Of a DNA stretch of 64,000 nt, positions 691 to 60,852 are shown one piece after another. This DNA comes from an uncultured bacterium (GTDB taxonomy: Bacteria > Omnitrophota > Omnitrophia > Omnitrophales > Abzuiibacteriaceae), in NCBI GenBank assembly GCA_964387845.1, contig CAYLXA010000002.1, positions 32,001-96,000 of the forward strand, read 5' to 3'. Under the pieces are notes generated by a model. That model had not been told where the DNA came from. It saw only the letters and a program-made list of their open reading frames with translations, and made no database searches. Position 1 is the stretch's first letter. Every line of letters begins with the position of its first letter. The position numbers were made by a program, and so were the translations under genes.

Positions 691-1395
691 ATGAAAATCA
701 CCCTCCTGATTATGACCTGGAACGAAATCGATGGAATGCGTGTGATCATGCCTCAGATCAAGAAAGAGTGGTATGACCAGCTCATCGTGGTTGATGGCGG
801 GTCGACGGACGGAACAATTGAATACGCAAAAGAATGTGGTTACGAAGTATATGTACAGAAACAAAAAGGGTTTCGGCACGCGTATACGGAAGTGATGCCT
901 TATGTTAAAGGTGATGTCATTGTTACTTTTAGCCCGGACGGTAATTCAATTGCCGAGCTGATTCCGGAGCTTAATAAAAAAATGCGCGAAGGCTACGATA
1001 TGGTCATCGTTTCGCGGTATTTGGGGAAAGCAAAAAGCAAGGATGATGATTTGGTGACGGGATTTGGCAATCGGTTATTTACAGGAACCGTAAATTTGCT
1101 TCATGGCGGGCATTATACGGATGCCATGGTGATCTTTCGCGCTTACCGGAAACAGATCGTTTACGATTTAGATTTAGACAAAGAAGAAAGCTATTCGTTT
1201 CCGGAAAAATTATTCAACACCAAAATCAGCTGGGAGCCGCTTTTGTCTGTTCGCGCTGCGAAGCGTAAATTAAAGGTCTCAGAAATTCCGGGCGACGAGC
1301 CGCCGCGAATCGGCGGCGAGAGAAAACTACAAGTACTTAAGTGGGGCGCGGCCTACTATTACCAATTCATCAGCGAAGTGTTTTGTTGGCGTTAA
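691..1395 (+). CDS. family-2 glycosyltransferase (Dpm1-like, soluble)
   Basis: 234-aa ORF. N-terminal GT2 signature (LLIMTWNE…LIVVDGGSTDGT). The size and motif fit a polyprenyl-phosphate sugar synthase-type GT2. Confidence 0.75.
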   Translation: MKITLLIMTWNEIDGMRVIMPQIKKEWYDQLIVVDGGSTDGTIEYAKECGYEVYVQKQKGFRHAYTEVMPYVKGDVIVTFSPDGNSIAELIPELNKKMREGYDMVIVSRYLGKAKSKDDDLVTGFGNRLFTGTVNLLHGGHYTDAMVIFRAYRKQIVYDLDLDKEESYSFPEKLFNTKISWEPLLSVRAAKRKLKVSEIPGDEPPRIGGERKLQVLKWGAAYYYQFISEVFCWR

Positions 1396-1419: not shown

Positions 1420-2355
1420 ATGGCAAAAATCTTGGTAACCGGAGGAGCAGGGTATATCGGATCTGTTTTAGTGCCTACGCTTCTCAAAGAAAAGCATGAA
1501 GTAACCGTGCTTGATAATCTCATGTACCAGCAATCCTCGCTGTTGGATGTTTGTTACGATTCTAATCTCACGGTAGTGCGCGGAGATGCCCGCGATGAAA
1601 AACTGATCGCAGGTCTGGTCAAAACCGTCGATTATATTTTCCCGCTCGCATGTTTGACGGGAGCGCCCCTTTGCGACAAAGATCCTTTCGCGGCCAAAGA
1701 AGTGAACTTAGATGCTATTTTGTTAATTTTAAAACACCGCAGTAAGAATCAGCGCGTAATCTATCCGACGACCAACAGCGGCTACGGAATCGGCCAAAAA
1801 GGAATCCATTGCGATGAAAAAACGCCGCTCAATCCGATTTCGCTCTATGGCAAATTAAAAGTTGAGGCTGAAAAGGCGATTTTGGATTCCGGAAATGCGG
1901 TTACCTTTCGTCTCGCAACGGCGTTCGGCATCAGTCCGCGGATGCGGCTTGATTTGTTGGTGAACGATTTTGTCTACCGAGCGATTAATGACCGTGCTGT
2001 GATTCTTTTTGAAAGTCATTTCAAGCGTAACTATGTCCACGTTCGCGATATTTCGCGAGCATTTGTGCATGCGGTGAATCATTTCGATAAAATGAAAAAC
2101 GAACCGTACAATGTCGGTTTAAGCGACTGCAATTTAAGCAAAAAAGAATTGTGCGATGAAATCAAAAAGCAGGTTCCCAAATTTTATTATGTTGAGTCGG
2201 CAATTGGCGAAGACCCGGATAAACGCGATTACATCGTGAGCAACGAAAAAATCGAGAAAACAGGGTTCAAAACCGAGCATCCGTTGACGGTTGGGATACG
2301 AGAGCTGATCAAGGGGTATCAAGTTATCAAACGGAGTCAATACGGAAACGTTTAA
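1420..2355 (+). CDS. NAD-dependent sugar epimerase/dehydratase (extended SDR)
   Basis: TGGAGYIGS Rossmann motif at the N-terminus. YGKLK matches the YxxxK catalytic motif. Confidence 0.8.
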   Translation: MAKILVTGGAGYIGSVLVPTLLKEKHEVTVLDNLMYQQSSLLDVCYDSNLTVVRGDARDEKLIAGLVKTVDYIFPLACLTGAPLCDKDPFAAKEVNLDAILLILKHRSKNQRVIYPTTNSGYGIGQKGIHCDEKTPLNPISLYGKLKVEAEKAILDSGNAVTFRLATAFGISPRMRLDLLVNDFVYRAINDRAVILFESHFKRNYVHVRDISRAFVHAVNHFDKMKNEPYNVGLSDCNLSKKELCDEIKKQVPKFYYVESAIGEDPDKRDYIVSNEKIEKTGFKTEHPLTVGIRELIKGYQVIKRSQYGNV

Positions 2356-3348
2356 ATGGCGAAATCAACTTCACCAAAAAATAAAGAAATTCTAATCTCG
2401 CTTTATAAAGCGATGCTGAAAATCCGCCGTGCGGAGGAAAAAGTGGCGGAACTTTATCCGTCCGACAAAATCCAAAGCCCGATTCATCTATGCATCGGAC
2501 AGGAGGCTATTTCAGCGGGCGTTTGCCTTGCCATGAAACAGTCAGATCATCTTTATGGAACTTATCGCGGCCACGGTGTTTATTTGGCAAAGGGCGGCAG
2601 CATGAAACAAATGTTTGCCGAGTTGTATGCGAAAGACACGGGTTGTGCGGGCGGTCGCGGCGGCTCCATGCATTTGATTGCGCCCGAAGTTGGCTTGATG
2701 GGATGTTCAGCGATTGTGGCCAGTACGATTCCGCTGGCGGTGGGCGATGCGCTTGCCACAAAGATGCGGAAGAAAAATGATGTAACCGTGACTTTTTTTG
2801 GCGACGGTGCTATCGGCGAAGGCGTTTTCTTTGAAAGTTTGAATTTCGCGGCGTTGAAAAAGCTGCCCGTGGTCTTTGTCTGTGAAAATAACAATTACGC
2901 GGTTCATTCGCGCGTCTCAGACCGCCATAAACAAACCGATCTTTATAAGTACGCGCAGCCTTTCGGAGTTCCGTCTAAACGTTTAGATGGCAATGATGCC
3001 TTGTTAGTTTATGAATCAATGTCGGATGCGATTGCAAAAGCACGGAAGGGCAGCGGTCCTATCTTTATTGAATATATGACCTACCGCATTTATGAACATG
3101 TGGGCCCGTCCAAGGATCATAAAGAGGTGTACCGCGAGACAAAAAAGTTAAAAAATGCCGAAAAAAACGATCCTGTCATTCGATTGGGAAAAGAGCTGCG
3201 TCAAAAATACAAGATTCCTGAATCTGTATTTGCTGAATGGGAATCTGAATTACAGAAAGAGGTCGAGAGCGCGGTCCAGTTCGCAGAAAAAAGTCCGGAG
3301 CCCCCAGCTAGCCGTTTGTACGAGCACATCTATTTGGAGAGATCATGA
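2356..3348 (+). CDS. thiamine-diphosphate-dependent dehydrogenase E1 component, alpha subunit (PDH/acetoin-DH E1alpha-like)
   Basis: YRGHG…GGRGGSMH…FFGDGA…ENNNYA motifs typical of E1 alpha subunits. Start abuts the previous stop. Confidence 0.8.
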   Translation: MAKSTSPKNKEILISLYKAMLKIRRAEEKVAELYPSDKIQSPIHLCIGQEAISAGVCLAMKQSDHLYGTYRGHGVYLAKGGSMKQMFAELYAKDTGCAGGRGGSMHLIAPEVGLMGCSAIVASTIPLAVGDALATKMRKKNDVTVTFFGDGAIGEGVFFESLNFAALKKLPVVFVCENNNYAVHSRVSDRHKQTDLYKYAQPFGVPSKRLDGNDALLVYESMSDAIAKARKGSGPIFIEYMTYRIYEHVGPSKDHKEVYRETKKLKNAEKNDPVIRLGKELRQKYKIPESVFAEWESELQKEVESAVQFAEKSPEPPASRLYEHIYLERS

Positions 3349-4376
3349 GCATTATCAGCTACGGCGAAGCCAATAAACAGGCGCTGACACTGGCGATGGA
3401 ACGCGACCCGAGCGTTTTCTTGATGGGAATCGGTGTAGATGACCACAAGGCCATTTTCGGTAGCGTGCGCGGCATGGTCGAACAGTTCGGCAAAGAGCGT
3501 ATTTTTGATACGCCGATTGCGGAGAGCGGGATGACGGGAATCGCGATTGGCGCCGCGCTAAACGGTATGCGGCCTGTCCATATTCATATCCGCGCCGACT
3601 TTTTATATTTGGCGATGGACCAGCTTTTTAATATTGCAGCGAAGTGGCATGCGATGTTTGGCGGAAAAATGAGCGTTCCGATTGTGATTCGCGCCGTGAT
3701 CGGCCGCAGCTGGGGGCAGGGTGCGCAGCATTCCCAAAGCCCTCAGGCCATGATTGCCCACGTTCCGGGTATTAAATTAGTAATGCCGACCACAGCGTAT
3801 GACGTGAAGGGCTTGCTGCTCAAAGCAATTACCGATCCAAATCCGGTGGTGATGATTGAACATCGCCTGCTTTACGACATTAAAGGAGAGGTGCCGGATG
3901 GTTATTATGAAATTCCATTCGGAAAGGGTGTTGTAAGACGAACCGGAAAGGATGTTACGATTGTCGCAACTTCCTATATGGTTGTTGAGGCATTGAAAGC
4001 TGCCGAATTTTTAACGAATCAGGGAATTGAGGTCGAGATCATTGACCCGCTTACACTGGTTCCGCTGGATGAAGAATTGATTCTGCGATCAGTTCAAAAA
4101 ACCGGCAGAATGCTGGTTGCGGATACCGGCTGGACCAATTGTGGCGTGAGCGCTGAAATTTCCGCGCGTGTTGCAGATCTCGGTTTTTCGTCACTCAAAG
4201 GCCCGATTCGCCGGCTCGGCATGGCGCCCACTGCTTGTCCGGTCAGCAAAGCCCTTGAAAACGCCTTTTATCCAAACGCTAAAACGATTGTCCAGCAAGT
4301 TTGCGAAATGTTGGGCGAGGCGGTTCCAAATGTAGAAGTCCCGCTTTTGGAAAGCAAATTCAAAGGGCCGTTTTAA
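3345..4376 (+). CDS. E1 component beta subunit (transketolase-like)
   Basis: 343-aa ORF. Overlaps the alpha gene by 4 nt, suggesting translational coupling. Transketolase-like Pyr and C-terminal domains characteristic of E1 beta. Confidence 0.8.
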   Translation: MSIISYGEANKQALTLAMERDPSVFLMGIGVDDHKAIFGSVRGMVEQFGKERIFDTPIAESGMTGIAIGAALNGMRPVHIHIRADFLYLAMDQLFNIAAKWHAMFGGKMSVPIVIRAVIGRSWGQGAQHSQSPQAMIAHVPGIKLVMPTTAYDVKGLLLKAITDPNPVVMIEHRLLYDIKGEVPDGYYEIPFGKGVVRRTGKDVTIVATSYMVVEALKAAEFLTNQGIEVEIIDPLTLVPLDEELILRSVQKTGRMLVADTGWTNCGVSAEISARVADLGFSSLKGPIRRLGMAPTACPVSKALENAFYPNAKTIVQQVCEMLGEAVPNVEVPLLESKFKGPF

Positions 4377-5560
4377 TGATTAAATATCATTTAGCTAAAG
4401 ACACAATTGATGAAAAAGATATTCAGGCACTGATTGAGTGGCTTAAATCCTACCCACGGCTCACGAAAGCAAATCTCACGCTTCAATTTGAAGAGCGGTG
4501 GAGCAAATGGCTTGGAAAGAAATATTCAACCTTCTGCAATTCCGGCTCATCCGCAAATTTGTTGATGTATTACGCGCTGCTAAGTTCCAAAAAGCTTAAA
4601 AATAAAAAAGTCGTCGTACCGACTGTTGGATGGGTGACCACCATTGCGCCTGCCATTCAATTCGGCTTTGAGCCGATCATGTGTGAAGCTGATCCCGACA
4701 CTTTTGGCCTTGATTTGGGTCATCTGGAAAAACTTCTCAAGAAGCACAATCCCGGCACGGTAGTGTTGGTACAGGTGCTCGGCGTTCCTCATAAAATGGA
4801 CGAAATTTTGGCGCTTAAGAAAAAATACGACTTCTATTTGTTGGAAGATGCCTGCGCTTCAATCGGTTCCACATATCACGGTAAAAAAATTGGGCAGTTC
4901 GGTGATATGGCAAGCTTTTCGTTCTATTTTGGACATCAAATGTCAACCATCGAAGGCGGTATGGTATCGACGGACAATAAAGAGTTTCAGGATTTATTAT
5001 TGATGCTTCGAAGCCATGGCTGGAGCAAGGATTTAGACGCAAAGACTCATGATGCGCTCGTTGAGCAATATAAAATTGATGACTTTCATACGCCCTTTGT
5101 TTTTTATGAGCCGGGGTTCAATTTGCGCTCAACCGACCTCAACGCATTTCTGGGGCTTCGGCAATTGGACAAGCTCGATTGGATGATTTCGCGGCGTGAT
5201 GAAAATCATAAGCTCTATTATAAACTCTTGGCAAATCAGTTTTACGCTCAGAAATATGCGGATCCAAAAGCAAATGTTTCAAGTATCTCATTTGGTGCTT
5301 TGGCCGCTGATCCGGAAGAGCGGCGCAAGGTCGTGAAGGCTTTGGTGCAGAACGGGATTGAAACCCGGATTTTTTCGGCAGGAAATCTAGGTTTGCATCC
5401 GTTTTGGTATAACCGATACGGAAAAGCGAGCTTTCCGGTTGCCGATAAAGTACACCATTGCGGATTTTTCCTTCCAAATCATCCGTCGCTTGCGACGAAA
5501 GATGTTGAATTTGTGGCGCAGGTAACCTTGGATGCGGTATGCACGGGAAAATCCTCGTAA
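4376..5560 (+). CDS. DegT/ColD/E1-family PMP-dependent sugar 3-dehydratase, with His replacing the catalytic Lys
   Basis: DegT-fold ORF. The ATG at 4376 overlaps the upstream TAA (TAATG); the track's longer start at 4301 is unlikely. The conserved SFYFGHQMSTIEGG segment has His where aminotransferases carry the Schiff-base Lys. The 394-aa size matches ColD-type dehydratases. Confidence 0.65.
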   Translation: MIKYHLAKDTIDEKDIQALIEWLKSYPRLTKANLTLQFEERWSKWLGKKYSTFCNSGSSANLLMYYALLSSKKLKNKKVVVPTVGWVTTIAPAIQFGFEPIMCEADPDTFGLDLGHLEKLLKKHNPGTVVLVQVLGVPHKMDEILALKKKYDFYLLEDACASIGSTYHGKKIGQFGDMASFSFYFGHQMSTIEGGMVSTDNKEFQDLLLMLRSHGWSKDLDAKTHDALVEQYKIDDFHTPFVFYEPGFNLRSTDLNAFLGLRQLDKLDWMISRRDENHKLYYKLLANQFYAQKYADPKANVSSISFGALAADPEERRKVVKALVQNGIETRIFSAGNLGLHPFWYNRYGKASFPVADKVHHCGFFLPNHPSLATKDVEFVAQVTLDAVCTGKSS

Positions 5561-6468
5561 CCGGCGGCACAGGTCTTTTGGGATCAGCGCTTCAAAAGCA
5601 GTGTCCGGATGCGGTTTATGTTGGAAGTAAAGATTATGACTTGAGACGGTTTGATGAGGCTGAGAGGATGTTTGGCGAAATAAAACCAACCCGCGTGATT
5701 CATCTTGCGGCCAATGTGGGTGGGGTGAAGAAAAACGCGGAGCAAAATGCCACACTTTTCTCGGACAATGTTTTAATCAACACCAATGTGATTGAGGCTG
5801 CAATTCAAGGCGGTGTTAAGCGGTTGATTTCAATTTTATCCAGCTGTTGTTTTAAAATTTATCCGGACAAGCCGTCAACAGAGAGCGATTTGCATGAAGG
5901 TGCGCCGTTTGCCGGCAATTTGGGCTATGGTTATGCAAAGCGAATGCTGGACATCCATAGCCGCTTAGCGTGGGAGCAGCATCGGCTGCAGTTTTCATCG
6001 ATCACTCCAGCGACAATGTATGGGCTTAACGATAACTGGGATCTAGAAAGCGGACATGTGGTGGCTGCGTTAATCCGCCGGACGTTTATAGCGAAAGAAA
6101 GGGGCGAGCCGTTGACTGTTTGGGGAAGTGGAAATGCTGTCCGCCAATTTGTCTTAGCAGATGATGTCGCGAGGCTGCTTTTAGAGGAGATTGATACGTT
6201 TGATGGCCCCGACAATATGATCGTAGCACCGGATTCGGGTGTCTCGATACGCGATTTAACAAGCATGATCGCGGAGCTGATGAATTTTAAAGGAGAAATT
6301 ATTTTTGACCAGTCGAAACCGGAGGGACAATTAAAGAGAGTGTTGATCAGTGAGAAATTTAAAAAGCGGTATCCCGAATTTAGCTTTACACCGCTTCGCA
6401 GCGGCTTAAAAATGACCATTGATTGGTTTCTCAAAAACTATAAAACAGCAAGGGTTTTGAAGGTGTGA
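5539..6468 (+). CDS. GDP-L-fucose synthase-like 3,5-epimerase/4-reductase (SDR)
   Basis: LVTGGTGLLGSAL Rossmann motif. SSCCFKIYP and GYGYAK motifs parallel Fcl SSCIYP / YAIAK. Confidence 0.7.
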   Translation: MHGKILVTGGTGLLGSALQKQCPDAVYVGSKDYDLRRFDEAERMFGEIKPTRVIHLAANVGGVKKNAEQNATLFSDNVLINTNVIEAAIQGGVKRLISILSSCCFKIYPDKPSTESDLHEGAPFAGNLGYGYAKRMLDIHSRLAWEQHRLQFSSITPATMYGLNDNWDLESGHVVAALIRRTFIAKERGEPLTVWGSGNAVRQFVLADDVARLLLEEIDTFDGPDNMIVAPDSGVSIRDLTSMIAELMNFKGEIIFDQSKPEGQLKRVLISEKFKKRYPEFSFTPLRSGLKMTIDWFLKNYKTARVLKV

Positions 6469-6469
6469 C

Positions 6470-7516
6470 ATGATTATTAGCCGAACCCCTTTTCGTGTTT
6501 CTTTTTTAGGCGGCGGAACCGATTACCCCGGTTGGTACCGTGAGCATGGCGGAGCCGTGTTGGCGACAACCATTGATAAGTACTGCTATATTACTTGCCG
6601 CTATCTACCCCCATTTTTTGAGCATAAAAGCCGCATCATGTATTCCAAAATCGAGTGCGTTCAGTCCAATAAAGACATCGAACATCCCTCTGTGCGGGAA
6701 ACTTTGAAATATATGAATATCCAAGAGGGGATTGAGATTCATCACGACGGCGATTTGCCTGCCCGCGCCGGTTTGGGATCAAGCTCTGCTTTTACAGTGG
6801 GATTATTGAACGCGCTTTATGGCCTTAAGCGTAAAATGTCGTCTAAAGAAGATTTGGCAAAGGAAGCGATTCATGTGGAAAGAGATCTCCTGAGCGAGAA
6901 TGTGGGATCTCAAGATCAGGTACAGTCGTCGTTTGGCGGTTTGAATCACATTGAATTCCTCAAAAACGGACAATTTAACGTTTTTCCGATTGTTTTGAAG
7001 CATGAGCGCCTTCAAAGTTTTCAAGATCATCTTTTGCTGTATTTTACGGGTTTCTCGCGTTTTGCTTCAGACATTGCAAAAGAGCAAATTGATTCGATTG
7101 CGAAAAAACAAAATGAGCTTAAAGCGATGGGGCAAATGGTTGGTGAAGGCCTCAAGATTCTTACGGGTGACGCAAGCTTGTTGGAATTTGGAAAATTGCT
7201 GCATGAAAGCTGGACATTGAAGCGGAATTTGACTAACCGGATTTCAACACCTGCCATTGATCAAATTTATGAAGAAGCGCGGAGGGCAGGCGCCGTGGGC
7301 GGAAAGCTGCTCGGGGCCGGCGGGGGCGGTTTCGTTCTTTTGCTGGTTGAGCCCGGTAAACAGCAAAAAGTAAAGGATGTGCTGCAAAAATTATTGCTGG
7401 TCCCGTTTCAATTCGAAAACACGGGAACGCAGGTTGTTTTTTACCGCCCTCCCAAGGAAAGTACCGAAATGAGTTGGTTTAAGTTCCAAAAGGAGCGGGA
7501 AGCTTCGCAAAAGTGA
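6470..7516 (+). CDS. GHMP-family sugar kinase, D-glycero-D-manno-heptose 7-phosphate kinase (HddA)-like
   Basis: N-terminus PFRVSFLGGGTDYP plus GHMP ATP-binding motif GLGSSSA. The C-terminal GGKLLGAGGGGF segment is HddA/fucokinase-like. Confidence 0.7.
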   Translation: MIISRTPFRVSFLGGGTDYPGWYREHGGAVLATTIDKYCYITCRYLPPFFEHKSRIMYSKIECVQSNKDIEHPSVRETLKYMNIQEGIEIHHDGDLPARAGLGSSSAFTVGLLNALYGLKRKMSSKEDLAKEAIHVERDLLSENVGSQDQVQSSFGGLNHIEFLKNGQFNVFPIVLKHERLQSFQDHLLLYFTGFSRFASDIAKEQIDSIAKKQNELKAMGQMVGEGLKILTGDASLLEFGKLLHESWTLKRNLTNRISTPAIDQIYEEARRAGAVGGKLLGAGGGGFVLLLVEPGKQQKVKDVLQKLLLVPFQFENTGTQVVFYRPPKESTEMSWFKFQKEREASQK

Positions 7517-8238
7517 ACAAACGCCTGACCGATCCAGCACACATTGACGTGTTAATTATTTGCGGAGGGCTGGGGACGCGCCTCCGTTCTGTCGAGCCCG
7601 ATGCGCCCAAAGGCATGGTTGTTATTGAAGGAAAACCGTTTCTTGAAATTCTGATTGATCATTTGCGTCATTCCGGTTTTCGGCGTTTTATTCTCTGCAC
7701 CGGTTACGGCGCCAAACGTTTTCGGCAGCATTTTGAAGCGGCCAAACAGTCAGAAATTATATTTTCCGAAGAAGTAAAGCCGCTGGGCACGGCCGGAGCT
7801 GTCAAGCAAGCCGAAAAACTCATAAGCAGCGATCAGCAGTTGGTGTTAAATGGCGATTCTTTGTGCTTGGCGGATTGGCAGGAGCTATTACGCTTTCATG
7901 CATCGCATCAGGGGTTGGCAACGCTTTTGGTAACTCAGGACCGAGAGCGAACGGATGTGGGCGGAATCAAGTTTGATCACAACTTCGGCGTAACGCAATT
8001 TAAAGAAAAGGAAAAAGAATCGACCCCATATATTAATGCGGGTATTTATATTTTTGAGCGCCGGTTATTGGAATTGATTCCGAAAAATCAAAAAATTTCT
8101 TTGGAGGAACAAATTTTTCCAAAGCTGAACGAAACCCAACTGTTTGCTTGCGTATCATTAGCAACTGTGTATGATATTGGAACGCCCGAACGTTTAGAGA
8201 AATTTAAACAACTTTATTCTGCAGGAAAATTCAATTAA
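7513..8238 (+). CDS. sugar-phosphate nucleotidyltransferase, heptose-1-P guanylyltransferase (HddC)-like
   Basis: GTG start. LIICGGLGTRLRS…PK motif of NDP-sugar pyrophosphorylases. Overlaps the kinase by 4 nt. Confidence 0.7.
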   Translation: MNKRLTDPAHIDVLIICGGLGTRLRSVEPDAPKGMVVIEGKPFLEILIDHLRHSGFRRFILCTGYGAKRFRQHFEAAKQSEIIFSEEVKPLGTAGAVKQAEKLISSDQQLVLNGDSLCLADWQELLRFHASHQGLATLLVTQDRERTDVGGIKFDHNFGVTQFKEKEKESTPYINAGIYIFERRLLELIPKNQKISLEEQIFPKLNETQLFACVSLATVYDIGTPERLEKFKQLYSAGKFN

Positions 8239-8243
8239 ACGAT

Positions 8244-9794
8244 ATGGTTAATACAAAAAATAAACTTGATGTCTTGCTCATTAATCCTGGCAATTTGATC
8301 CAGGTTTACCAAACGCTGGGACTCAATATTTCTGCTATCGAGCCGCCGGTTTGGTCCGGGTTGATGGCCACTTTCGTTCGGCGCAAAGGCTGTTCCGTTC
8401 AAATTCTGGATGCTAACGCCGAGAATCTGACCCCTGCTCAAACTGCGCAAAAAGCGCTTGAGTTGAAGCCGCTTCTGATCGCTGTTGTTGTTTACGGACA
8501 TCAACCGTCGGCTTCGACGCAAATTATGCCGGCGGCAAGTTCAATTTGCTCCGCGATTAAGGCGCAAGACCCAAGCCAAAAGGTGTTTTTGGTTGGCGGG
8601 CATGTCTCGGCGCTGCCTGATCGGACGCTGAGCGAGGAAAGTGCAGATTTTGTGTCGAGCGGCGAGGGGCCGCACACGCTTTTAGAGTTAATTGAGGCGC
8701 TGAAAGCCGGCGGCTCCGAAAATTTAAAGAAGGTTCGCGGATTACTTTATAAAGAAAACGGGAAAATTCAGTTCAACGCACCGGCACCACTCGTCAAAAA
8801 CTTGGATGAAGAAATGCCTGAAATGGCCTGGGATCTTTTGCCTATGGAAAAATACCGGGCGCACAACTGGCATTGTTTCGGTCATTTAGATAAACGCGCG
8901 CCTTATGCTTCGTTTTATACCACGCTCGGGTGTCCGTATCACTGCACTTTTTGTTGTATTCAGTCGCCTTACAAAACCGGAGAAAAAGAGTCTGGTTTGA
9001 AGGAGGAGATTAACAGCTATCGCTTCTGGAATCCCAAAACGGTTGTCGATCAAATCGGAAAATTAGTCAACGAATACGGAGTCCGCAATATTAAGATCGC
9101 AGACGAGATGTTTGTTCTCAATGCGCGTCATGTATTTGGTATTTGCGATTTGATCATTGAGCGCGGTTATGATTTGAATATTTGGGCGTATGCACGCATT
9201 GACACAATTAAGGACAATATGCTGGACAAATTAAAGCGTGCGGGTGTGAACTGGCTCGCGTTTGGCATCGAGTCGGGTAGCGAGCGTGTCCGAGATAATG
9301 TGGACAAAGCGTTTGACCAAGAGGACATTCGCAAAGTAATTCAAAAAGTGAAAGATGCTGGTATTAACATCATCGGAAATTATATCTTCGGGCTACCGGA
9401 AGATGATATGAATTCAATGAAAGCCACTCTGGATTTAGCGCTCGAACTTAATTGCGAATTTACCAACTTTTATTGCGCGATGGCGTATCCCGGGTCTCCT
9501 TTGTATCAGCAGGCTATCCGTGAAAAATGGGCATTACCAAAAGCCTGGAGCGGTTATTCTCAGCATTCGGTCGATATGCTTCCGCTTGCCACAAAACACC
9601 TCCCGGCTTCTGACGTTATTCGGTTTAGAGACCAGGCATTTGAGGTTTATTTTAAATCACCTAAATATTTAGAGATGGTGCGCCAAAAATTCGGCGAAGA
9701 AACTTTAAAACATATCCAGGCAATGCTTTCACATCAGCTTAAACGACAATTCGTTTCTTCAAGCACGTCAAAAACCTCATCGCAAAAGAGTTGA
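8244..9794 (+). CDS. B12-binding (class B) radical SAM enzyme
   Basis: N-terminal cobalamin-binding Rossmann-like domain. CPYHCTFC gives a CX3CX2C radical SAM motif. 516 aa. Confidence 0.75.
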   Translation: MVNTKNKLDVLLINPGNLIQVYQTLGLNISAIEPPVWSGLMATFVRRKGCSVQILDANAENLTPAQTAQKALELKPLLIAVVVYGHQPSASTQIMPAASSICSAIKAQDPSQKVFLVGGHVSALPDRTLSEESADFVSSGEGPHTLLELIEALKAGGSENLKKVRGLLYKENGKIQFNAPAPLVKNLDEEMPEMAWDLLPMEKYRAHNWHCFGHLDKRAPYASFYTTLGCPYHCTFCCIQSPYKTGEKESGLKEEINSYRFWNPKTVVDQIGKLVNEYGVRNIKIADEMFVLNARHVFGICDLIIERGYDLNIWAYARIDTIKDNMLDKLKRAGVNWLAFGIESGSERVRDNVDKAFDQEDIRKVIQKVKDAGINIIGNYIFGLPEDDMNSMKATLDLALELNCEFTNFYCAMAYPGSPLYQQAIREKWALPKAWSGYSQHSVDMLPLATKHLPASDVIRFRDQAFEVYFKSPKYLEMVRQKFGEETLKHIQAMLSHQLKRQFVSSSTSKTSSQKS

Positions 9795-10978
9795 CTCAGT
9801 CGCGATCAACGCAGAAGCAATGGATAGTTATCGGCGGCGGCATTATTGGCACCGCGGTTGCCCTGGCTCTTGCTAAGCGCAAAGCTGGCTCAATCTTAAT
9901 TCTAGAGAAAGAATCTTCGCTCGGGCTTCATCAAAGCGGTCGCAACAGCGGTGTCATTCATTCCGGGATTAATCAAAAACCCGGAAGTTTGAAAGCAAAA
10001 ATGTGCGTTGAGGGCAGCCGGCGCTTGCGAGAATATTGCAGACAGCGGCGGATTGTGATGAATGAATGTGGGACTTTAGTGATTGCGCGTCATGCCGAAG
10101 AGCTGGCAACCCTAGACCGTCTTTTAAAAATGGGTGTCGAGTGCGGCGTTGAGGGGTTGATGTTAATCGGCCGCGATGAATTGATTGAGCGGGAACCGAT
10201 TGCCAAAGGCGATAGTGCTCTTCTGTCTCCCTCAGGCGCAACCGTTGATTCTGAAATGCTCCTCAAATCTCTTGCGCAAGATGCGCGCGAGGTCGGTGTT
10301 GAGTATAAAATGGTCCATCGCGTTTTAAAAATCGAAGGAAATACGGTCTATACCAACCAAGGGAGTTTCAACGCCGAATACATCATTAATTGTGCGGGGC
10401 TTTATGCAGATGAAATTGCGCATATGATGAACGCAGGGAGAGGTTATCGGATTATTCCATTTCGCGGCGAGTATATGGAAGTCAAAAATTGCGATGTGAA
10501 ATCAATGGTTTATCAGGCTCCTGATCTCCGGTTTCCGTTTTTGAGCATTCATTTAACCCGGGAAACGGACGGAAGAGTGCTTGCCGGGCCTAGCGCAGTT
10601 TTGGCGTTTGGCAGGGAAGCATATGAGAAGGAATGGGATTGGCGTGAAATGGGCCGCATGTTTACTAGTATGCAATTTTTACGGATGGTTATCAGACCAG
10701 AGTTTGTGCAGCTAGCTTCCGAGAATTTGAAAACATCGCTATCAGCAAATAGTTTTTTGGAGCAGATTCAGTCTCTGGTTGCAGGTGTAACGCAAGAACA
10801 GATTGTGCCGCATCGGGCCGGAATCCGAGCTCAGATGGTGGATCAAAGCGGTAAATTGGTTGATGATATTTTGGTGGAACATCAACCGTCGGCAACGCAT
10901 GTGCTGAATGCAGTATCTCCCGGAATGACGTGCAGTCTGGCATTTGCAGACTATTTAGCGGGGCAAATTTTAAATTAG
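9791..10978 (+). CDS. FAD-dependent oxidoreductase (L-2-hydroxyglutarate oxidase LhgO-like)
   Basis: TTG start overlapping the previous stop. The WIVIGGGIIGTAVA dinucleotide-binding motif immediately follows. LhgO/DAO-family architecture. Confidence 0.7.
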   Translation: MTQSRSTQKQWIVIGGGIIGTAVALALAKRKAGSILILEKESSLGLHQSGRNSGVIHSGINQKPGSLKAKMCVEGSRRLREYCRQRRIVMNECGTLVIARHAEELATLDRLLKMGVECGVEGLMLIGRDELIEREPIAKGDSALLSPSGATVDSEMLLKSLAQDAREVGVEYKMVHRVLKIEGNTVYTNQGSFNAEYIINCAGLYADEIAHMMNAGRGYRIIPFRGEYMEVKNCDVKSMVYQAPDLRFPFLSIHLTRETDGRVLAGPSAVLAFGREAYEKEWDWREMGRMFTSMQFLRMVIRPEFVQLASENLKTSLSANSFLEQIQSLVAGVTQEQIVPHRAGIRAQMVDQSGKLVDDILVEHQPSATHVLNAVSPGMTCSLAFADYLAGQILN

Positions 10979-11002
10979 TGAGATAGTTAACGAGTGGCTT
11001 GT

Positions 11003-11968
11003 ATGAAAAAAATTTTAATCTGCGGCGGAACTGGTTTTATCGGCAGGAATTTGGTTGAGTATTTTGTCAAAAAACCAGATTTTGAAGTTTACGCAACTTG
11101 TTACAAGCGTCGTTCTCCCTTAATTCCAAAGGCTAAATTTAAGCGTATTGATTTAACAAATGTTGTGCAAGTTCAAGAAATTGTGAAGGGGATGGATGTT
11201 GTGGTTCAAGCCGCTGCCACAACCTCCGGCGTAAAGGATACGATTGAGGCGCCTTATGTGCACGTTACAGATAACGCCGTAATGAACTCCTTGATTTTTC
11301 GAGCGTGTTTCGAGCAAAAGGTGAAACACGTGATCTTTTTAAGCTGTACCGTGATGTATCCGAATCAGGAGGCGCCAGTTTCGGAAGAAGATATGAATTA
11401 TCAAATTACGGATAATTATTTTGGTGTCGGTTGGACAAAAGTTTACCTCGAGAAAATGAGCCAATTTTATTCGCGAATCGGAAGTGCTAAATATACCGCG
11501 ATTCGGCATTCCAATATTTACGGCCCTTATGATAAGTATGATCTTGAAAAATCACACGTTTTTGGCGCAACGGTTGCGAAAGTTGAAACTGCCAAGGACG
11601 GCAAAGTTGTGGTCTGGGGCACGGGCGCCCAAGAGCGCGATCTTTTATATGTGGATGACCTGTCCCGGTTTATTGATTTGGCAATTGAAAAGCAAACTGA
11701 AAAGTTTGAGCTGGTTAATGTTGGTTACGGAAAAAGCATTTCAATTGCTAATCTGGTCCAGTTGATTATTGACCGCTCCAAAAAGAATTTAAAGATTGAG
11801 TATGATCATTTAAAGCCTTCGGTTAACTTCAAGTTGGTTCTGAATATCGACCGCGCAAAGCGCATTTTTGGCTGGGAGCCGCAGGTGCCGCTTGAAGAAG
11901 GAATTGAAAGGAGTCTTGCGTGGTATCGAAAACATATTCAACCAATGTCTGCCGAAAAGATTAAATGA
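11003..11968 (+). CDS. NAD-dependent epimerase/reductase (second Fcl-like SDR)
   Basis: ICGGTGFIGRNL motif. An LSCTVMYP segment lies where Fcl has SSCIYP. The alternative start is 10994. Confidence 0.7.
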   Translation: MKKILICGGTGFIGRNLVEYFVKKPDFEVYATCYKRRSPLIPKAKFKRIDLTNVVQVQEIVKGMDVVVQAAATTSGVKDTIEAPYVHVTDNAVMNSLIFRACFEQKVKHVIFLSCTVMYPNQEAPVSEEDMNYQITDNYFGVGWTKVYLEKMSQFYSRIGSAKYTAIRHSNIYGPYDKYDLEKSHVFGATVAKVETAKDGKVVVWGTGAQERDLLYVDDLSRFIDLAIEKQTEKFELVNVGYGKSISIANLVQLIIDRSKKNLKIEYDHLKPSVNFKLVLNIDRAKRIFGWEPQVPLEEGIERSLAWYRKHIQPMSAEKIK

Positions 11969-14019
11969 AAAGCAAATTAATTTGCGCTGCCGTATTAGTG
12001 GCGCTGATTGTGATTTCATTTTACACCTACCGCTCCGGTGTCATTTCCGTGCCTCGCTCCGATCACTATGGGTTTATGGCGGAGAGGGAATACGCAGTTT
12101 CGGATACCGAGTTTTTGTTGAAGCAGTTGGTCTATAACCGGACCCGCGTCATCGCAAAGGGTGATTCTTTTTTGTTCAGGCCCGGAATGACCGGCACGCT
12201 CGCGCTTTTGGATATTTTTTTTCGGCATAATTTGTATGCGCTTGGCGCTTTCAGTATCCTCGCGCATGCTTTGACGGCTTTTTCATTGTTCTTATTGCTG
12301 AGTTTGTTTTTAAGGCGCTCTTTTGCGTTTATCCTATCCGTTGTATTTGCCACGCATCTGGCAGGTTTTGAAATGGTTTTTTGGCGCCATATCAGTCCTT
12401 ACATGTTTTGCCTGGTTTTTGTAGGATTGGCATTGTACGCGCTTGGCCGCTGGCTTCAGCCGCCCGAAAATCGAAATTGGCTTTTATTATTTTCATTCTG
12501 CCTTTTTTTATCTTCACTATTTCACGAAGTTGTTTTGCCGGCGATGGTTATCTTCTGTCTTTTATTTTTAGTTCTGCATTTTCAAAATCAATCAACGAAT
12601 CCATCTTATTTTAAATCATTGTCAATCGCGTGCCTGGTCCCGCTGGCTGCTAATTTGCTGCTCAACGTCGCTGGCCGGATCGCTTTTAGCAGCCAGGCCA
12701 ACCTGTTATTGAGTGATGCGGCGCAACCGGCAAGCGTTGCTTACGCCTCAAAATTTTTAAGCCACGCGGTTTACGTCGGGGGCCTGATTATCACTGCCTT
12801 TTTGGCGCCGAGCATCATTCGTTTCTCATTTATTAATTTGGATTTTCGGGCGGAGTGGGACTTTCTCAAAATTCCAGCGCCTGTTTTTTACACCGCCGGT
12901 TTTATTTTTCTTACATTGATCGCAGGGGCGTTAATTTATCTATATATTTTCAGAAAAAAGCTCGGTCAGCGACAGCTTTTTCCGATTTTTGCATTCGCGG
13001 GAATATTTTTGATTGTCACTTTTTTGGGACTAACGGTCGGGAGGGCCATTCCGCGCTCAATCGGTTATTTGAAAAACTCCACCTATTATTTCTATCTAAC
13101 CAATTACGCCCTTACAATCATCGTTGCTATGGGCTTGAGAAAAATCAGCAGCTTACCGTATAAAAATTTAAAAATCGGATTAGTGTTTTTCCTGCTCTGT
13201 GTTGCCGGTTATCAGATTAAAAGCGGTATTGCGGGAATCGAAAAGGCAATCAATGCTCGAGGTGATTACGATAAACAAATCGCTTCCAAAACACTCCGGG
13301 TTTGGTCAGAATTAAGCAAGCATCCGGAATATTGCTATGGTGGGACCGGGGCCGAAAGAGTTTCAAGCTTTGTGCCCAATGTTCTGCTGTACCGAAGGTC
13401 ATGCAATGCTTTCCCGGACAAAATCCCGCTCTATTTGCTCGAAAACGAAAAACGCGAACTTTGGTTTATGCAGTTGATTCCTGAGCAGATTGATCAGCAG
13501 GCCTATCGTTATGGGCAGATCAATAATGAGGGGCAAGCCGAGTTTTCCGCTCAATCAACCGATAACCAGCTCAGTTTTAGCGGTTTTTCTCTTAGCAATG
13601 CCGTCCATCATCCTATTTATTACGGCGCCCGGCTTCATGGGGGATTTGTCGGAGGTTTGGTATTTAACTATCACGACCCCGCCAATTTTTCAATCTTAGT
13701 GGCAAATGAACGTTACACTTATGTGCAATTTAACGAGAATGGAAACCCCTCGGAACCGTCGTATGTGGCGCAGCAGATTTTAGATCCGATCGCTTTTGAT
13801 TTGTCGATTCGGAGAATCGGCGGCAGGTATGTTGTATTCTATAACCGGACTTTGCTTGCAGTGATCAATGATGCTGTTTCCGAGGGACGAGTGGGGCTTT
13901 ATCGGAAGCCCCGTCATTCAGCAGGCGAGTATTTTACCGACGTGGTCTTGATTGATGCTTCAGAGGCCAAACAATCGCAGATGGGTGCTTTTGAACCTGT
14001 TTTTCAATTTCAATTTTAG
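11965..14019 (+). CDS. large polytopic membrane protein with a ~250-aa C-terminal soluble beta-rich domain (GT-C-like?)
   Basis: 684 aa. About 10 predicted TM segments in the first ~430 aa, then a hydrophilic C-terminal domain. 4-nt overlap with the upstream gene. Confidence 0.6.
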   Translation: MKSKLICAAVLVALIVISFYTYRSGVISVPRSDHYGFMAEREYAVSDTEFLLKQLVYNRTRVIAKGDSFLFRPGMTGTLALLDIFFRHNLYALGAFSILAHALTAFSLFLLLSLFLRRSFAFILSVVFATHLAGFEMVFWRHISPYMFCLVFVGLALYALGRWLQPPENRNWLLLFSFCLFLSSLFHEVVLPAMVIFCLLFLVLHFQNQSTNPSYFKSLSIACLVPLAANLLLNVAGRIAFSSQANLLLSDAAQPASVAYASKFLSHAVYVGGLIITAFLAPSIIRFSFINLDFRAEWDFLKIPAPVFYTAGFIFLTLIAGALIYLYIFRKKLGQRQLFPIFAFAGIFLIVTFLGLTVGRAIPRSIGYLKNSTYYFYLTNYALTIIVAMGLRKISSLPYKNLKIGLVFFLLCVAGYQIKSGIAGIEKAINARGDYDKQIASKTLRVWSELSKHPEYCYGGTGAERVSSFVPNVLLYRRSCNAFPDKIPLYLLENEKRELWFMQLIPEQIDQQAYRYGQINNEGQAEFSAQSTDNQLSFSGFSLSNAVHHPIYYGARLHGGFVGGLVFNYHDPANFSILVANERYTYVQFNENGNPSEPSYVAQQILDPIAFDLSIRRIGGRYVVFYNRTLLAVINDAVSEGRVGLYRKPRHSAGEYFTDVVLIDASEAKQSQMGAFEPVFQFQF

Positions 14020-14043
14020 TTATGCGGTAGTGAGGTGTGTGTG

Positions 14044-15963
14044 ATGATTTTGTTTCCGGTTTTATTATTTGCGGCTTTGGTTCTGATTTTAAACGGCCAT
14101 CCGCAATTTCGAGTCAATGAACGCGATGATTGGCGTTATCAAACGGGTCTTGCATTTGTTGTGACGGGCGTCATCGCGGTTGCTGCGATTGAAGTGTTGA
14201 GCGTTTTTTCTGCGCTTACACAAAAAACCGTTGGCGTGACATGGGGAGCGCTGCTGTGCGTTGCTCTGTCTGTTTGGTTTTTTGGTTATCGAAAAACTCA
14301 GATCCTGCCTTCGATTTCCGGTTTTTCAGGTTTATTCTTAGGGCTTTTGTCCGGGATTTTTTTCCTCGTAATTATTACGAGCGTTGTTGCTCTTTTGGCT
14401 CCGCCCAATACATGGGATTCGCTGACGTATCACATGAGCCGGGTCGCGCATTGGGTCCAAAATAGAAGTGTCGGACACTATCCAACCAACATTTTAAGGC
14501 AATTGTATCATGCGCCAGGAGCCGAATTTATGATCTTGCAAGCCCAGCTCTTGAGCGGAGGCGACCGCTTTGCCAATATGATTCAATGGAGTTTTTATAT
14601 CGGCTGTGTTCTCACCAGTTCTTTGCTGACAAAGCAATTTGGATTTGACCGGTGGGCACAGCTGCTGACCGCGGTTTTTGCGTCAACGCTCCCGATGGCG
14701 ATTTTACAGGCTTCAAGCACGCAAAACGATCTGGCAGCCTCGTTCTGGCTTCTTGCAGCAGTTGTGTTTCTTCTGAGGCTGCAGAATCAATTTAATTGGA
14801 CAGATGCGTGCGGTGCCGGTGCCGGTATTGGGCTTGCGTTTCTGACAAAATCACTATCCTATGTTTACATTATTCCGTTCATAGCGTGGTTTGCTTGGGC
14901 TTGCGTCAGAAACAGGCAGTGGGGAAAGTTGTCAAAAACTGCGGCGTTAATTGCTGCGCTGGTTATCGTGATTAATCTGGGCCACTGGTCGCGCAATTTC
15001 GTACTTTTCCATCATCCGCTAGGGCCAATAAAAACAATAGATTTAACCAACGAGAAATTCGGCGTCCGGCCCGTGTTGTCTAACATAATTCGGGGCGCTG
15101 CCTCGCACGCGAGCTTTCCGATCATTGGTATTAACCACGAGCTGACCAAATGGATTTATGCGTTCCACCGTTCGCTTGGCATGGATGCCAATGATCCGAA
15201 GACAACCTATGATCCTAATTTTGGAAAATTTCAAATCCGTCCGCTTCACGCCCATGAAGATTCAGCGAGCAACCCCATTCATTTTTGGCTGATTGTGATT
15301 TGCGGGATTATTGCGCTGCGCAGGCGCGAGACTCGAAAAGAGCCAAAATTTATATTTTATCTTGCATCGGTCATTGCTGCCTTCCTGCTAATTTGCATTA
15401 TTTTCAAGTGGCAAGTGTGGATCAGCCGTTTGCAGCTGCCTCTTTTCTTTTTTTGGGCACCTGTGGCGGGTTCAGTGCTGTCTTTGATGAAAGCAAAAAG
15501 CGTATCTGGCGCAGTTGCCGTTTTTTTGCTGGTCAGCTCACTTTATTCAGCTTTCTTTAATTTTTCTCGGAGTTTTTTTAAGTGGCCTTTTGTTGACAAT
15601 ATGCCGCCCACTGTTTTTGAAGCAGGACGTGACATGCTGTATATGAATAACGGGGCTAACATTGTGAAGCTTTCATATTTACTTGCAACAAAACATATTG
15701 AATCGAAGCGCTATAAGAATGTCGGACTTATTGTTCATGAGGATGACTGGGAATATCCGTACTGGGCGATACTGCAAGCCAATCGGAATGCGATCCGGAT
15801 TGAACATATAGAAGTGGCGAATATATCGAGTAAAATAAAAAGAAAGCCTTTTCGGCCGGATGTTGTTATTGCATCAAAGCCAACGGATGGGCAAATCCGA
15901 CGCTATGAAGCCGAGTATGGTTCCGGCGAACAGATGGGAATTTTGTGGGTTTTTGGCCGGTAG
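14044..15963 (+). CDS. polytopic GT-C-type membrane glycosyltransferase (ArnT/PMT-like)
   Basis: ATG at 14044 preceded by GAGGTG. Many TM helices. Early loop PPNTWDSLTYHMSRVAHW resembles the GT-C acidic loop. Soluble C-terminal ~150 aa. Confidence 0.6.
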   Translation: MILFPVLLFAALVLILNGHPQFRVNERDDWRYQTGLAFVVTGVIAVAAIEVLSVFSALTQKTVGVTWGALLCVALSVWFFGYRKTQILPSISGFSGLFLGLLSGIFFLVIITSVVALLAPPNTWDSLTYHMSRVAHWVQNRSVGHYPTNILRQLYHAPGAEFMILQAQLLSGGDRFANMIQWSFYIGCVLTSSLLTKQFGFDRWAQLLTAVFASTLPMAILQASSTQNDLAASFWLLAAVVFLLRLQNQFNWTDACGAGAGIGLAFLTKSLSYVYIIPFIAWFAWACVRNRQWGKLSKTAALIAALVIVINLGHWSRNFVLFHHPLGPIKTIDLTNEKFGVRPVLSNIIRGAASHASFPIIGINHELTKWIYAFHRSLGMDANDPKTTYDPNFGKFQIRPLHAHEDSASNPIHFWLIVICGIIALRRRETRKEPKFIFYLASVIAAFLLICIIFKWQVWISRLQLPLFFFWAPVAGSVLSLMKAKSVSGAVAVFLLVSSLYSAFFNFSRSFFKWPFVDNMPPTVFEAGRDMLYMNNGANIVKLSYLLATKHIESKRYKNVGLIVHEDDWEYPYWAILQANRNAIRIEHIEVANISSKIKRKPFRPDVVIASKPTDGQIRRYEAEYGSGEQMGILWVFGR

Positions 15964-26956: not shown

Positions 26957-26963
26957 CTAGGGA

Positions 26964-48495: not shown

Positions 48496-48515
48496 TTCGT
48501 GATGAGTTGTTATTT

Positions 48516-49496: not shown

Positions 49497-49497
49497 C

Positions 49498-50394: not shown

Positions 50395-50395
50395 G

Positions 50396-51727: not shown

Positions 51728-51743
51728 AAATTGGGGGAAGTGT

Positions 51744-56772: not shown

Positions 56773-56820
56773 AGCGCATTATAGCTGCCATGCCTTAAAG
56801 TGCAATTCATAAGGCGTTGA

Positions 56821-56848
56821 TTGACAATTTGAGGAATTGCTTTAAAAT
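56821..56848 (+). promoter_or_regulatory. sigma-70-like promoter TTGACA-N16-TAAAAT in a divergent GT4/GT4 spacer
   Basis: TTGACA at ~56821 and TAAAAT at ~56843, about 50 nt upstream of the GT4 start at 56898. Confidence 0.45.
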
Positions 56849-56897
56849 GGATGTTTCCAATTTGTAAATATCATAACCTATTGTAATACAATAACTT

Positions 56898-58028: not shown

Positions 58029-58031
58029 TCA

Positions 58032-60849: not shown

Positions 60850-60852
60850 TAT

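Follow-up and report, generated by a model that had tools for sequence, protein, structure and literature searches.

Two adjacent genes in a stretch of 64,000 nucleotides from an uncultured bacterium of the Omnitrophota (contig CAYLXA010000002.1, positions 32,001 to 96,000; this whole stretch is called the window here) code for proteins related to the alpha and beta subunits of the E1 component of pyruvate dehydrogenase (PDH). From their sequences and gene context, the pair is best explained as a stand-alone, non-oxidative carboligase dependent on thiamine diphosphate (ThDP), of the alpha-KADH2 type (for 'alpha-keto acid dehydrogenase 2'), which would work outside any 2-oxoacid dehydrogenase complex. 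By analogy with AviB1/B2, Pau11/12 and KbDH we think it rather likely that the two subunits place an acetyl branch, obtained by decarboxylation of pyruvate, at C4 of a keto-sugar, and the acceptor is probably GDP-3-deoxy-4-keto-heptose rather than a mannose derivative.

The gene pair

The alpha gene (2356-3348, plus strand, 330 aa) is covered by the Pfam family E1_dh over its full length, and the beta gene (3345-4376, plus strand, 343 aa) carries Transket_pyr (7.4e-32) and Transketolase_C (7.6e-34). Both genes are intact. The alpha subunit has the ThDP motif, with GDG at residue 149 and ENNNY at 177-181 (N178-N179), and its His248 aligns with the human alpha-His263, while Glu60 of the AESG motif and His129 are conserved in the beta subunit. 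Judging from these residues (GDG...NN, beta-Glu60, alpha-His248 and beta-His129), the ThDP machinery of the pair is intact. The alpha subunit also contains a weak match to TPP_enzyme_C (1.2e-05), and the single-polypeptide TPP_enzyme_N/M/C architecture typical of YerE-like enzymes is absent from the pair. Its closest solved relatives are pyruvate-specific E1 enzymes.

Regarding the junctions, the sequence places the stop codon TAA (2353-2355) of a short-chain dehydrogenase/reductase (SDR) gene directly before the alpha ATG at 2356. The alpha and beta genes overlap in ATGA (3345-3348), the beta ATG occupying 3345-3347 and the alpha stop TGA 3346-3348. Furthermore, the motif TAATG (4374-4378) joins the beta gene to the one that follows, a sugar 3-dehydratase: the final A of the beta stop codon TAA (4374-4376) is also the first letter of the next ATG (4376-4378). 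An earlier interpretation of this DNA (the sequence-only reading), which had claimed translational coupling of the alpha, beta and 3-dehydratase genes, is borne out by the ATGA and TAATG overlaps.

Separation from the 2-oxoacid dehydrogenase complexes

The absence of E2 (dihydrolipoyl acyltransferase), E3 (dihydrolipoyl dehydrogenase) and lipoyl genes from the window, which had been noticed before, was confirmed in three ways. A tblastn search of the window with eight E2 and E3 proteins from canonical loci gave no match at E<=1e-3, motif scans were also empty, and Pfam found no lipoyl, 2-oxoacid_dh or E3 family in the window's open reading frames (ORFs) of at least 150 aa, of which five were left unscanned. 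An E2/E3 pair immediately upstream would have spoken for a dehydrogenase complex according to the sequence-only reading. Neither gene is present in locus L001, the 7.3 kb of this contig that precede the window; the products encoded there are a membrane protein, a 2-oxoglutarate (2OG) oxygenase, a pyruvyl transferase, an FrhB-like protein and a glycosyltransferase of family 2 (GT2).

Both subunits also score below the curated NCBIfam cut-offs for PDH, the alpha subunit with 329.6 against 393.85 (TIGR03182, PDH E1 alpha) and the beta subunit with 316.7 against 321 (NF006667, PDH E1 beta). For the homologues of the beta subunit, the Prokaryotic Genome Annotation Pipeline (PGAP) gives no more specific name than 'transketolase C-terminal domain-containing protein'.

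In order to place the pair among its relatives, one genome per species was scanned, which gave 80 loci, and the synteny was scored by a script. Where the identity is 42% or lower, an E2 gene mostly lies immediately downstream of the relative, whereas the closest relatives share the sugar genes of the window instead. We built a neighbour-joining tree from the concatenated alpha and beta sequences of 74 pairs, AviB1/B2, Pau11/12 and KbDH not being among the sequences. The tree splits, with a bootstrap of 100/100, into 22 pairs without an adjacent E2, including the window pair, and the remaining 52, at least 38 of which have E2 directly downstream. This last count is a lower bound, because E2 was called by the motif DHRxxDG, a conservative procedure that missed the E2 of locus L043 found by Pfam. 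A clade of eight cassette members received a bootstrap of 95/100 and its inner five 100/100, and no E2 was found beside any of the 17 pairs that are of the cassette type or have an FxGP[FY] tail. The 22-pair side includes a Kutzneria pair with a gene for an EryCIII-type deoxysugar glycosyltransferase immediately after it, and a Streptomyces pair with a Pfam-confirmed downstream E2 falls outside this side. Sister lineages without an adjacent E2 are neighbours of HldE-like and SIS genes. Moreover, 18 positions are invariant or nearly so in 13 sugar-linked pairs and rare in 38 E2-linked pairs, and several of them flank the catalytic His residues (E247, G250 and D254 in alpha; W123 and Q125 in beta).

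The beta subunit differs in its C-terminus as well. The window protein continues for 24 residues (codons 4305-4376, ending in FKGPF) beyond the point where the Geobacillus protein has 5-6 residues left. Such an extension, of 24-37 residues and ending in FxGPF, is found in all 13 sugar-linked pairs of the tree, and the tails of the E2-linked pairs measure 4-9 residues. In the Geobacillus complex (E1-PSBD structure, PSBD being the peripheral subunit-binding domain), E2 docks at a site to which the carboxylate of the beta C-terminus contributes, and by analogy the extension would clash with E2 docking.

The pair could still be an ordinary pyruvate or acetoin dehydrogenase E1 that lies beside sugar genes by chance and has its E2 and E3 elsewhere in the genome. 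Its identity to genuine PDH E1 subunits, human and Geobacillus, is about 40-50%, and the catalytic His residues for lipoyl acetylation are kept, as such an enzyme would have them. However, the scores, the PGAP naming, the fully supported split from the E2-linked pairs and the presumed E2 dock buried under the extension are all contrary to this explanation, as are the stop and start codons overlapping with those of the sugar genes and the gene order with sugar enzymes, which is conserved in five phyla. We consider it scarcely credible. Three features of the PDH E1 functional family are lacking in the pair, namely a score above the cut-offs, an E2/E3 partner encoded nearby and a short beta C-terminus.

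Distribution of the C-terminal extension

The extension is present in loci L002-L013, L030 and L082-L088, with GPY instead of GPF in two actinomycete pairs. In a full HMMER scan of 1.84 billion representative sequences, a GP[FY] ending was seen in 50 of the best 150; the tailed E1 branch is a large family that has not been given a name. We rejected the FxGPF tail as a strict marker of sugar function, since the beta subunit of Solidesulfovibrio magneticus RS-1 lacks it and a tailed pair (...FAGPY) on the plasmid pSGRIFU1 of Streptomyces griseofuscus (L089 10989-16519) has no sugar genes around it. This pair adjoins a condensation-domain protein of 1103 residues of the nonribosomal peptide synthetase (NRPS) type, and an acyl carrier protein (ACP), a phosphopantetheinyl transferase and gamma-butyrolactone regulators are nearby. 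Because of this NRPS/ACP context, the tailed subfamily extends beyond sugars.

The same plasmid locus is what favours a different role, in which the pair would make an activated two-carbon (C2) unit, acetyl or glycolyl, for a carrier protein or a small molecule, for example for the acylation of glycans. For the window pair we judge this role very unlikely, since it is translationally coupled to sugar-modifying enzymes and no ACP, acyltransferase or lipoyl protein was met with in the window's genes that were scanned with Pfam, nor in seven related cassettes according to their Pfam or PGAP gene tables.

The cassette and its distribution over at least five phyla

The related neighbourhoods were read from precomputed Pfam labels and by BLAST labelling. 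The recurring set comprises an SDR similar to Cj1427, a GDP-heptose dehydrogenase of Campylobacter jejuni, followed by E1 alpha, E1 beta, a ColD-type enzyme of the DegT family, a further SDR, a GHMP kinase, a nucleotidyltransferase, a radical S-adenosylmethionine (SAM) enzyme and a GT2, often with a glycosyltransferase of the GT-C type after them. Five phyla or more share the cassette, namely Omnitrophota, Elusimicrobiota, Acidobacteriota, Pseudomonadota (Legionellales and Rhodospirillales) and Thermodesulfobacteriota. The C4-dehydrogenase and the 3-dehydratase, the latter in most cassettes, are the neighbours that stay with the pair most constantly, and a radical SAM gene is found with most of the related E1 pairs.

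Two carriers are cultured. In the Thermodesulfobacteriota, S. magneticus RS-1 has the cassette on its plasmid pDMC1, together with an annotated lhgO gene (L090 21331-22533) and a GmhA-like SIS gene. Azospirillum lipoferum 4B has the core of the cassette on its plasmid p6, where a HAD-IIIA hydrolase and the nucleotidyltransferase are fused in one gene. A further lhgO homologue was found in the related cassette L082, and aldo-keto reductase genes in two others (L006 and L085).

Two single cases are also worth recording. In the Nitrospirae locus L004 (10961-12703) the E1 beta sequence reads into a GT2 domain, giving an ORF of 580 aa whose Transketolase_C domain is truncated at 79 of its 124 positions. 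The two may really be fused, which would tie the ThDP enzyme to glycosyl transfer, or the assembly may be at fault. On p6 of A. lipoferum (L088 14454-16719), genes for a methylthioadenosine (MTA) phosphorylase and a methylthioribose-1-phosphate isomerase come directly after the E1 and DegT genes, with sulfotransferases nearby, and these may serve the salvage of 5'-deoxyadenosine or MTA from SAM chemistry.

The substrate is probably a GDP-heptose

Cj1427 is a GDP-heptose C4-dehydrogenase whose bound NAD+ is restored by 2-oxoglutarate, which becomes L-2-hydroxyglutarate. Combined in vitro with a ColD-like C3-dehydratase it yields GDP-3-deoxy-4-keto-heptose, and this combination has been reported so far only as an in vitro mixture (PMC10680097). 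The SDR directly upstream of our pair is 55% identical to PDB 6VO6 over 308 residues and 56-88% identical to its counterparts in 11 related cassettes. We assigned 6VO6 to Cj1427 because the published Cj1427 primer encodes RAFKMMKV, which is present in the 6VO6 sequence.

The gene downstream of the pair had been labelled a 3-dehydratase, and rightly so. Its nearest solved relative is ColD, the GDP-4-keto-6-deoxymannose 3-dehydratase, and it has His in place of the Schiff-base Lys of the aminotransferases (FGHQMST against YSHHIAT in ColD) at the site of ColD His188, a position marked by the ColD H188N and H188K mutant structures. The same His is present in all the adjacent DegT genes of the core cassettes, also in RS-1 and A. 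lipoferum.

The sequence-only reading had suggested that this dehydratase supplies a 3-deoxy-4-keto acceptor. The keto and deoxy logic stands, given the Cj1427-like SDR and the ColD-type His, but the sugar is more likely a GDP-heptose than a GDP-6-deoxyhexose. This preference is due to the Cj1427-like SDR itself, the L-2-hydroxyglutarate oxidase of the operon, the lhgO and GmhA-like SIS genes of the RS-1 cassette, the kinase, whose best solved relatives are heptose kinases, and the HldE-like and SIS neighbours of the sister lineages. A colitose-like route from GDP-mannose, which needs a 4,6-dehydratase, was dropped, as the upstream SDR is a close homologue of Cj1427 and the kinase and transferase are HddA/HddC-like. 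Furthermore, the gene content suggests that the oxidase of the operon recycles L-2-hydroxyglutarate to 2-oxoglutarate for the Cj1427-type dehydrogenase; we found no description of this coupling in the literature.

Proposed pathway and its alternatives

In the pathway that we propose, the kinase and the guanylyltransferase would first produce GDP-heptose. The Cj1427-like SDR would then oxidise C4, passing the hydride to 2-oxoglutarate, which the L-2-hydroxyglutarate oxidase would regenerate. In the third step the ColD-like enzyme would remove the 3-hydroxyl to give GDP-3-deoxy-4-keto-heptose. In the fourth, the E1 pair would decarboxylate pyruvate on ThDP and add the acetyl-anion equivalent to the C4 carbonyl without a lipoyl acceptor, the product being a tertiary alcohol with an acetyl branch, that is, a nine-carbon sugar. 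The fucose-synthase-like SDR and the B12-binding radical SAM enzyme could then tailor this product, through an epimerisation or a ketoreduction and through a methylation, a deoxygenation or a ring closure. Finally, the GT2 would put the sugar on polyprenyl phosphate and the GT-C would move it to a periplasmic acceptor. The first three steps are predicted from close homology to characterised enzymes, and the last three would follow from family membership, synteny and precedent. Sequence and comparison show the protein families, the intact catalytic residues for ThDP, the missing E2/E3, the conservation of the cassette and the separate clade; we infer the pyruvate donor, the C4 acceptor, the order of the steps and the final product.

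There are precedents in the literature. E1 alpha/beta pairs, namely AviB1/B2, Pau11/12, the aldgamycin pair and KbDH-alpha/beta, use pyruvate to attach acetyl branches (C2) to keto-sugars (PMC4753412, PMC12247030). For AviB1/B2 and Pau11/12 the C4 acetyl branch from pyruvate is a proposal, the evidence for the aldgamycin pair comes from feeding and knockout experiments, and that for KbDH-alpha/beta from in vitro carboligation with sugar analogues. In paulomycin the branch's keto group is reduced by the aldo-keto reductase Pau7. The literature thus agrees with the sequence-only reading in its choice of AviB1/AviB2 as a precedent for C2 branching. The two-carbon branching role that it had proposed for our pair gains support from this precedent, from the E2-free clade and from the synteny with enzymes that make 4-keto and 3-deoxy-4-keto sugars, the chemistry being what we infer.

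Nevertheless, several points weigh against an acetyl transfer to C4. The fucose-synthase-like SDR, together with the dehydrogenase and the dehydratase, could complete a 3-deoxy-heptose without any ThDP step, and it would compete with the E1 pair for the 4-keto group unless the two act one after the other. The related cassette L085 has no adjacent 3-dehydratase, the RS-1 beta subunit has no GPF tail and the tailed pair of the Streptomyces plasmid stands in the NRPS/ACP context described above. The kinase and the nucleotidyltransferase score well below the NCBIfam cut-offs of HddA and HddC. Finally, the nearest solved relative of the radical SAM enzyme is AprD4, which brings in a side-chain carbonyl as a possible alternative acceptor. 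Because of the epimerase/reductase, L085, the RS-1 tail, the Streptomyces plasmid pair and AprD4, we hold the C4-acetyl reading as the probable one with clear reserve, and leave some room for other ThDP chemistry directed at sugars.

This other chemistry might use another donor (hydroxypyruvate, 2-oxobutyrate or 2-oxoglutarate) or another acceptor, such as a C6 or C7 carbonyl made by the radical SAM enzyme on the side chain of the heptose, or it might be a carbon-carbon cleavage of the acetoin type that shortens a branched or keto-sugar. A radical SAM partner is nearly always present and AprD4, its best solved relative, makes a ketone; the heptose carries a 6,7-diol; 2-oxoglutarate is both made and consumed in the pathway; and the acetoin:dichlorophenolindophenol oxidoreductase (Ao:DCPIP oxidoreductase) is an E1 alpha/beta enzyme able to cleave acyloins. 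The competition of the Fcl-like enzyme for the 4-keto group points in the same direction. Against this, the only branches that a review describes for the characterised alpha-KADH2 sugar enzymes are C2 units derived from pyruvate, the most constant neighbours of the pair act at C3 and C4, and its closest solved relatives are specific for pyruvate. We therefore regard such chemistry as possible, but rather unlikely.

A more specific, and doubtful, extension of the C4-acetyl pathway concerns caryose, a 4,8-cyclo-3,9-dideoxy-nonose whose biosynthetic origin is unknown according to a review of 2022. By our own derivation, caryose corresponds formally to a 3-deoxy-heptose that has gained a C2 unit from pyruvate at C4, is closed by a C7-C8 bond and ends in a methyl group; it would match in its number of carbons, in the 3-deoxy position, in the tertiary C4 and in the methyl at its end. 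The radical SAM enzyme would in this case join the C4 acetyl branch to the heptose side chain, giving a carbocyclic nonose. Its best family matches, HpnJ and BchE, have both been implicated in the formation of five-membered carbon rings. By analogy this remains a speculative outcome, which we think improbable.

Comparison with known systems

The pair resembles AviB1/AviB2 (avilamycin), Pau11/Pau12 (paulomycin), the aldgamycin pair and KbDH (kibdelomycin) in being a two-gene E1 without E2/E3, located among nucleotide-sugar genes and next to enzymes that form keto-sugars, and the reaction proposed is the same, with a tertiary alcohol as product. However, those systems belong to antibiotic clusters of actinomycetes, while ours belongs to a cell-envelope operon of the Omnitrophota and other Gram-negative phyla, with a probable GDP-heptose, a Cj1427-type dehydrogenase, a constant radical SAM enzyme and export by polyprenyl phosphate and GT-C. 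The likeness is one of proposed function, gene architecture and context.

Another similar logic is that of YerE and ErwE, which act in the synthesis of yersiniose and erwiniose for the lipopolysaccharides of Gram-negative bacteria. Here, too, a 4-keto sugar undergoes 3-deoxygenation dependent on pyridoxamine phosphate (PMP), receives an acyl branch at C4 from a ThDP enzyme and is then ketoreduced, and the product goes to a surface glycan. Nevertheless, YerE is a single-chain flavoprotein of the decarboxylase/acetolactate-synthase superfamily which acts on CDP-3,6-dideoxy-4-keto-glucose, whereas the window enzyme is of the heteromeric E1 type. YerE is therefore an analogue of the pair and not a homologue at the family level.

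With the alpha2beta2 E1 enzymes of the PDH, acetoin dehydrogenase and branched-chain 2-oxoacid dehydrogenase complexes the pair shares the fold families, the ThDP motif, the beta-Glu and both catalytic His residues. It departs from them in having no E2/E3 partner, scores below the cut-offs, a separate clade, changed residues near the active site and a longer beta C-terminus.

As for the GDP-heptose pathway of C. jejuni, homologues of HddA and HddC, Cj1427 (55%), the C3-dehydratase of serotype HS:5 and Cj1428 are all present. The Campylobacter clusters, however, have no ThDP enzyme, radical SAM enzyme or L-2-hydroxyglutarate oxidase, and their products are unbranched heptoses.

On E1 genes in O-antigen clusters we found nothing specific in the literature, and a lead to Coxiella was empty. 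Bradyrhizose was also considered; the sole genetic lead in the literature is a cluster with a dTDP-glucose 4,6-dehydratase, which shows no link to the cassette.

The operon and its surroundings

All the ArgRS relatives that have a name are Candidatus Omnitrophica/Omnitrophota. The pair is part of an operon of packed or overlapping plus-strand genes that runs from 691 to at least 15963 (Table 1).

Table 1. Genes of the operon that contains the E1 pair, with their predicted functions (SDR, short-chain dehydrogenase/reductase; PLP, pyridoxal phosphate; GT2 and GT-C, glycosyltransferase types)
Predicted product	Position	Strand	Basis
GT2 polyprenyl-phosphate sugar transferase (AglJ/ArnC-like), first operon gene	691..1395	+	Pfam Glycos_transf_2
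Cj1427-like NAD-dependent GDP-heptose C4-dehydrogenase (SDR)	1420..2355	+	1.2e-114 to PDB 6VO6/6VO8
E1 alpha, ThDP-dependent (PP domain)	2356..3348	+	E1_dh 3.2e-74
E1 beta, ThDP-dependent (Pyr and C-terminal domain; 24-residue C-terminal extension ending FKGPF)	3345..4376	+	Transket_pyr, Transketolase_C
ColD-type PMP/PLP-dependent sugar 3-dehydratase (DegT family)	4376..5560	+	best PDB matches ColD, 1.7e-52
GDP-L-fucose-synthase-like epimerase/reductase (ColC/Cj1428-like)	5539..6468	+	1.4e-70 to human GDP-L-fucose synthase
GHMP sugar kinase, HddA (heptose-phosphate kinase) type	6470..7516	+	best PDB matches heptose kinases 3K85, 4N3O; best NCBIfam HddA, below cut-off
Sugar-1-phosphate guanylyltransferase (HddC/ManC-like)	7513..8238	+	NTP_transferase; NCBIfam mannose-1-P guanylyltransferase and HddC, below cut-offs
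B12-binding-domain radical SAM enzyme, putative tailoring step	8244..9794	+	Pfam B12-binding and Radical_SAM
L-2-hydroxyglutarate oxidase (FAD)	9791..10978	+	NCBIfam NF008726 359.7 bits, above cut-off 299; 2.2e-61 to PDB 8W75
Further extended-SDR sugar epimerase/dehydratase/reductase	10994..11968	+	Pfam Epimerase 2.2e-42, GDP_Man_Dehyd full length
684-residue protein, no Pfam match	11965..14019	+	operon member by position; start overlaps preceding stop
GT-C (PMT_2/ArnT-like) polyprenyl-phosphate-dependent glycosyltransferase	14035..15963	+	Pfam PMT_2

The best NCBIfam matches of the GT2 are AglJ, dolichyl-phosphate hexose transferase and ArnC, all of them below the cut-offs; the protein is 59-75% identical in related cassettes and 62% in RS-1. 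The fucose-synthase-like SDR reaches 189 bits for the NCBIfam Fcl family, with a cut-off of 500. In the alignment to the human enzyme it has the STC-type Cys, the YxxxK motif and the His of GH, positions which we take to be the catalytic residues of GDP-L-fucose synthase. The NCBIfam matches of the radical SAM enzyme to HpnJ and BchE are also below the cut-offs, and its best PDB match, the sugar diol-dehydratase AprD4, has an E-value of 1.4e-15. Homologues of the further SDR (10994..11968) are 57-61% identical in L003 and L086, and a GT-C gene after the cassette is also found in L087, L082, L083 and RS-1.

Upstream of the window, the contig has a group of divergent glycan genes (L001 1714-7714) with a polysaccharide pyruvyl transferase and its FrhB/FdhB-like partner, a 2OG-Fe(II) oxygenase and a GT2. 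Because of this pyruvyl transferase, decoration with pyruvate-derived groups may occur twice in the region.

The rest of the window contains other gene groups. Genes of a polyamine type lie at 17777-21001, 23872-28415 (minus strand) and 35411-36532; the set includes a protein of 1074 residues with a spermidine-synthase domain and tetratricopeptide (TPR) repeats, an ornithine/diaminopimelate (Orn/DAP) decarboxylase, a deoxyhypusine-synthase-like gene and a saccharopine-dehydrogenase-like protein by a second PMT-type GT-C. At 41208-44095 there are two adjacent diguanylate cyclase genes with GGDEF domains, the first also with GAF, and after them come genes for a transaldolase and an LptD-like protein. 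Another polysaccharide cluster, distinct from that of the E1 pair (47203-63626), has two UDP-glucose/GDP-mannose dehydrogenases, an RmlD-like reductase, several glycosyltransferases of families 4 and 2, a methyltransferase and, at 51744-54570, three extended SDRs in tandem.

Implications

The formation of carbon branches by E1 alpha/beta enzymes has so far been described for the antibiotic sugars of actinomycetes, and in the surface glycans of Gram-negative bacteria this role has been assigned to the unrelated YerE family. The cassette would extend it to a large and unnamed E1 branch which, in the cassettes examined, is wired to GDP-heptose chemistry, radical SAM enzymes and polyprenyl-phosphate export in at least five phyla. 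It would also be the first natural context for the combination of Cj1427 and a C3-dehydratase, and the dedicated L-2-hydroxyglutarate oxidase is suggested to close the redox cycle of the Cj1427-type enzymes. The proposal is open to direct testing in S. magneticus RS-1 and A. lipoferum 4B, which are in culture, and the enzymes are potential biocatalysts for tertiary alcohols. For poorly known bacteria such as the Omnitrophota and Elusimicrobiota, the pathway predicts a surface sugar that has not been described, with a higher carbon number, a branch and possibly a carbocycle.

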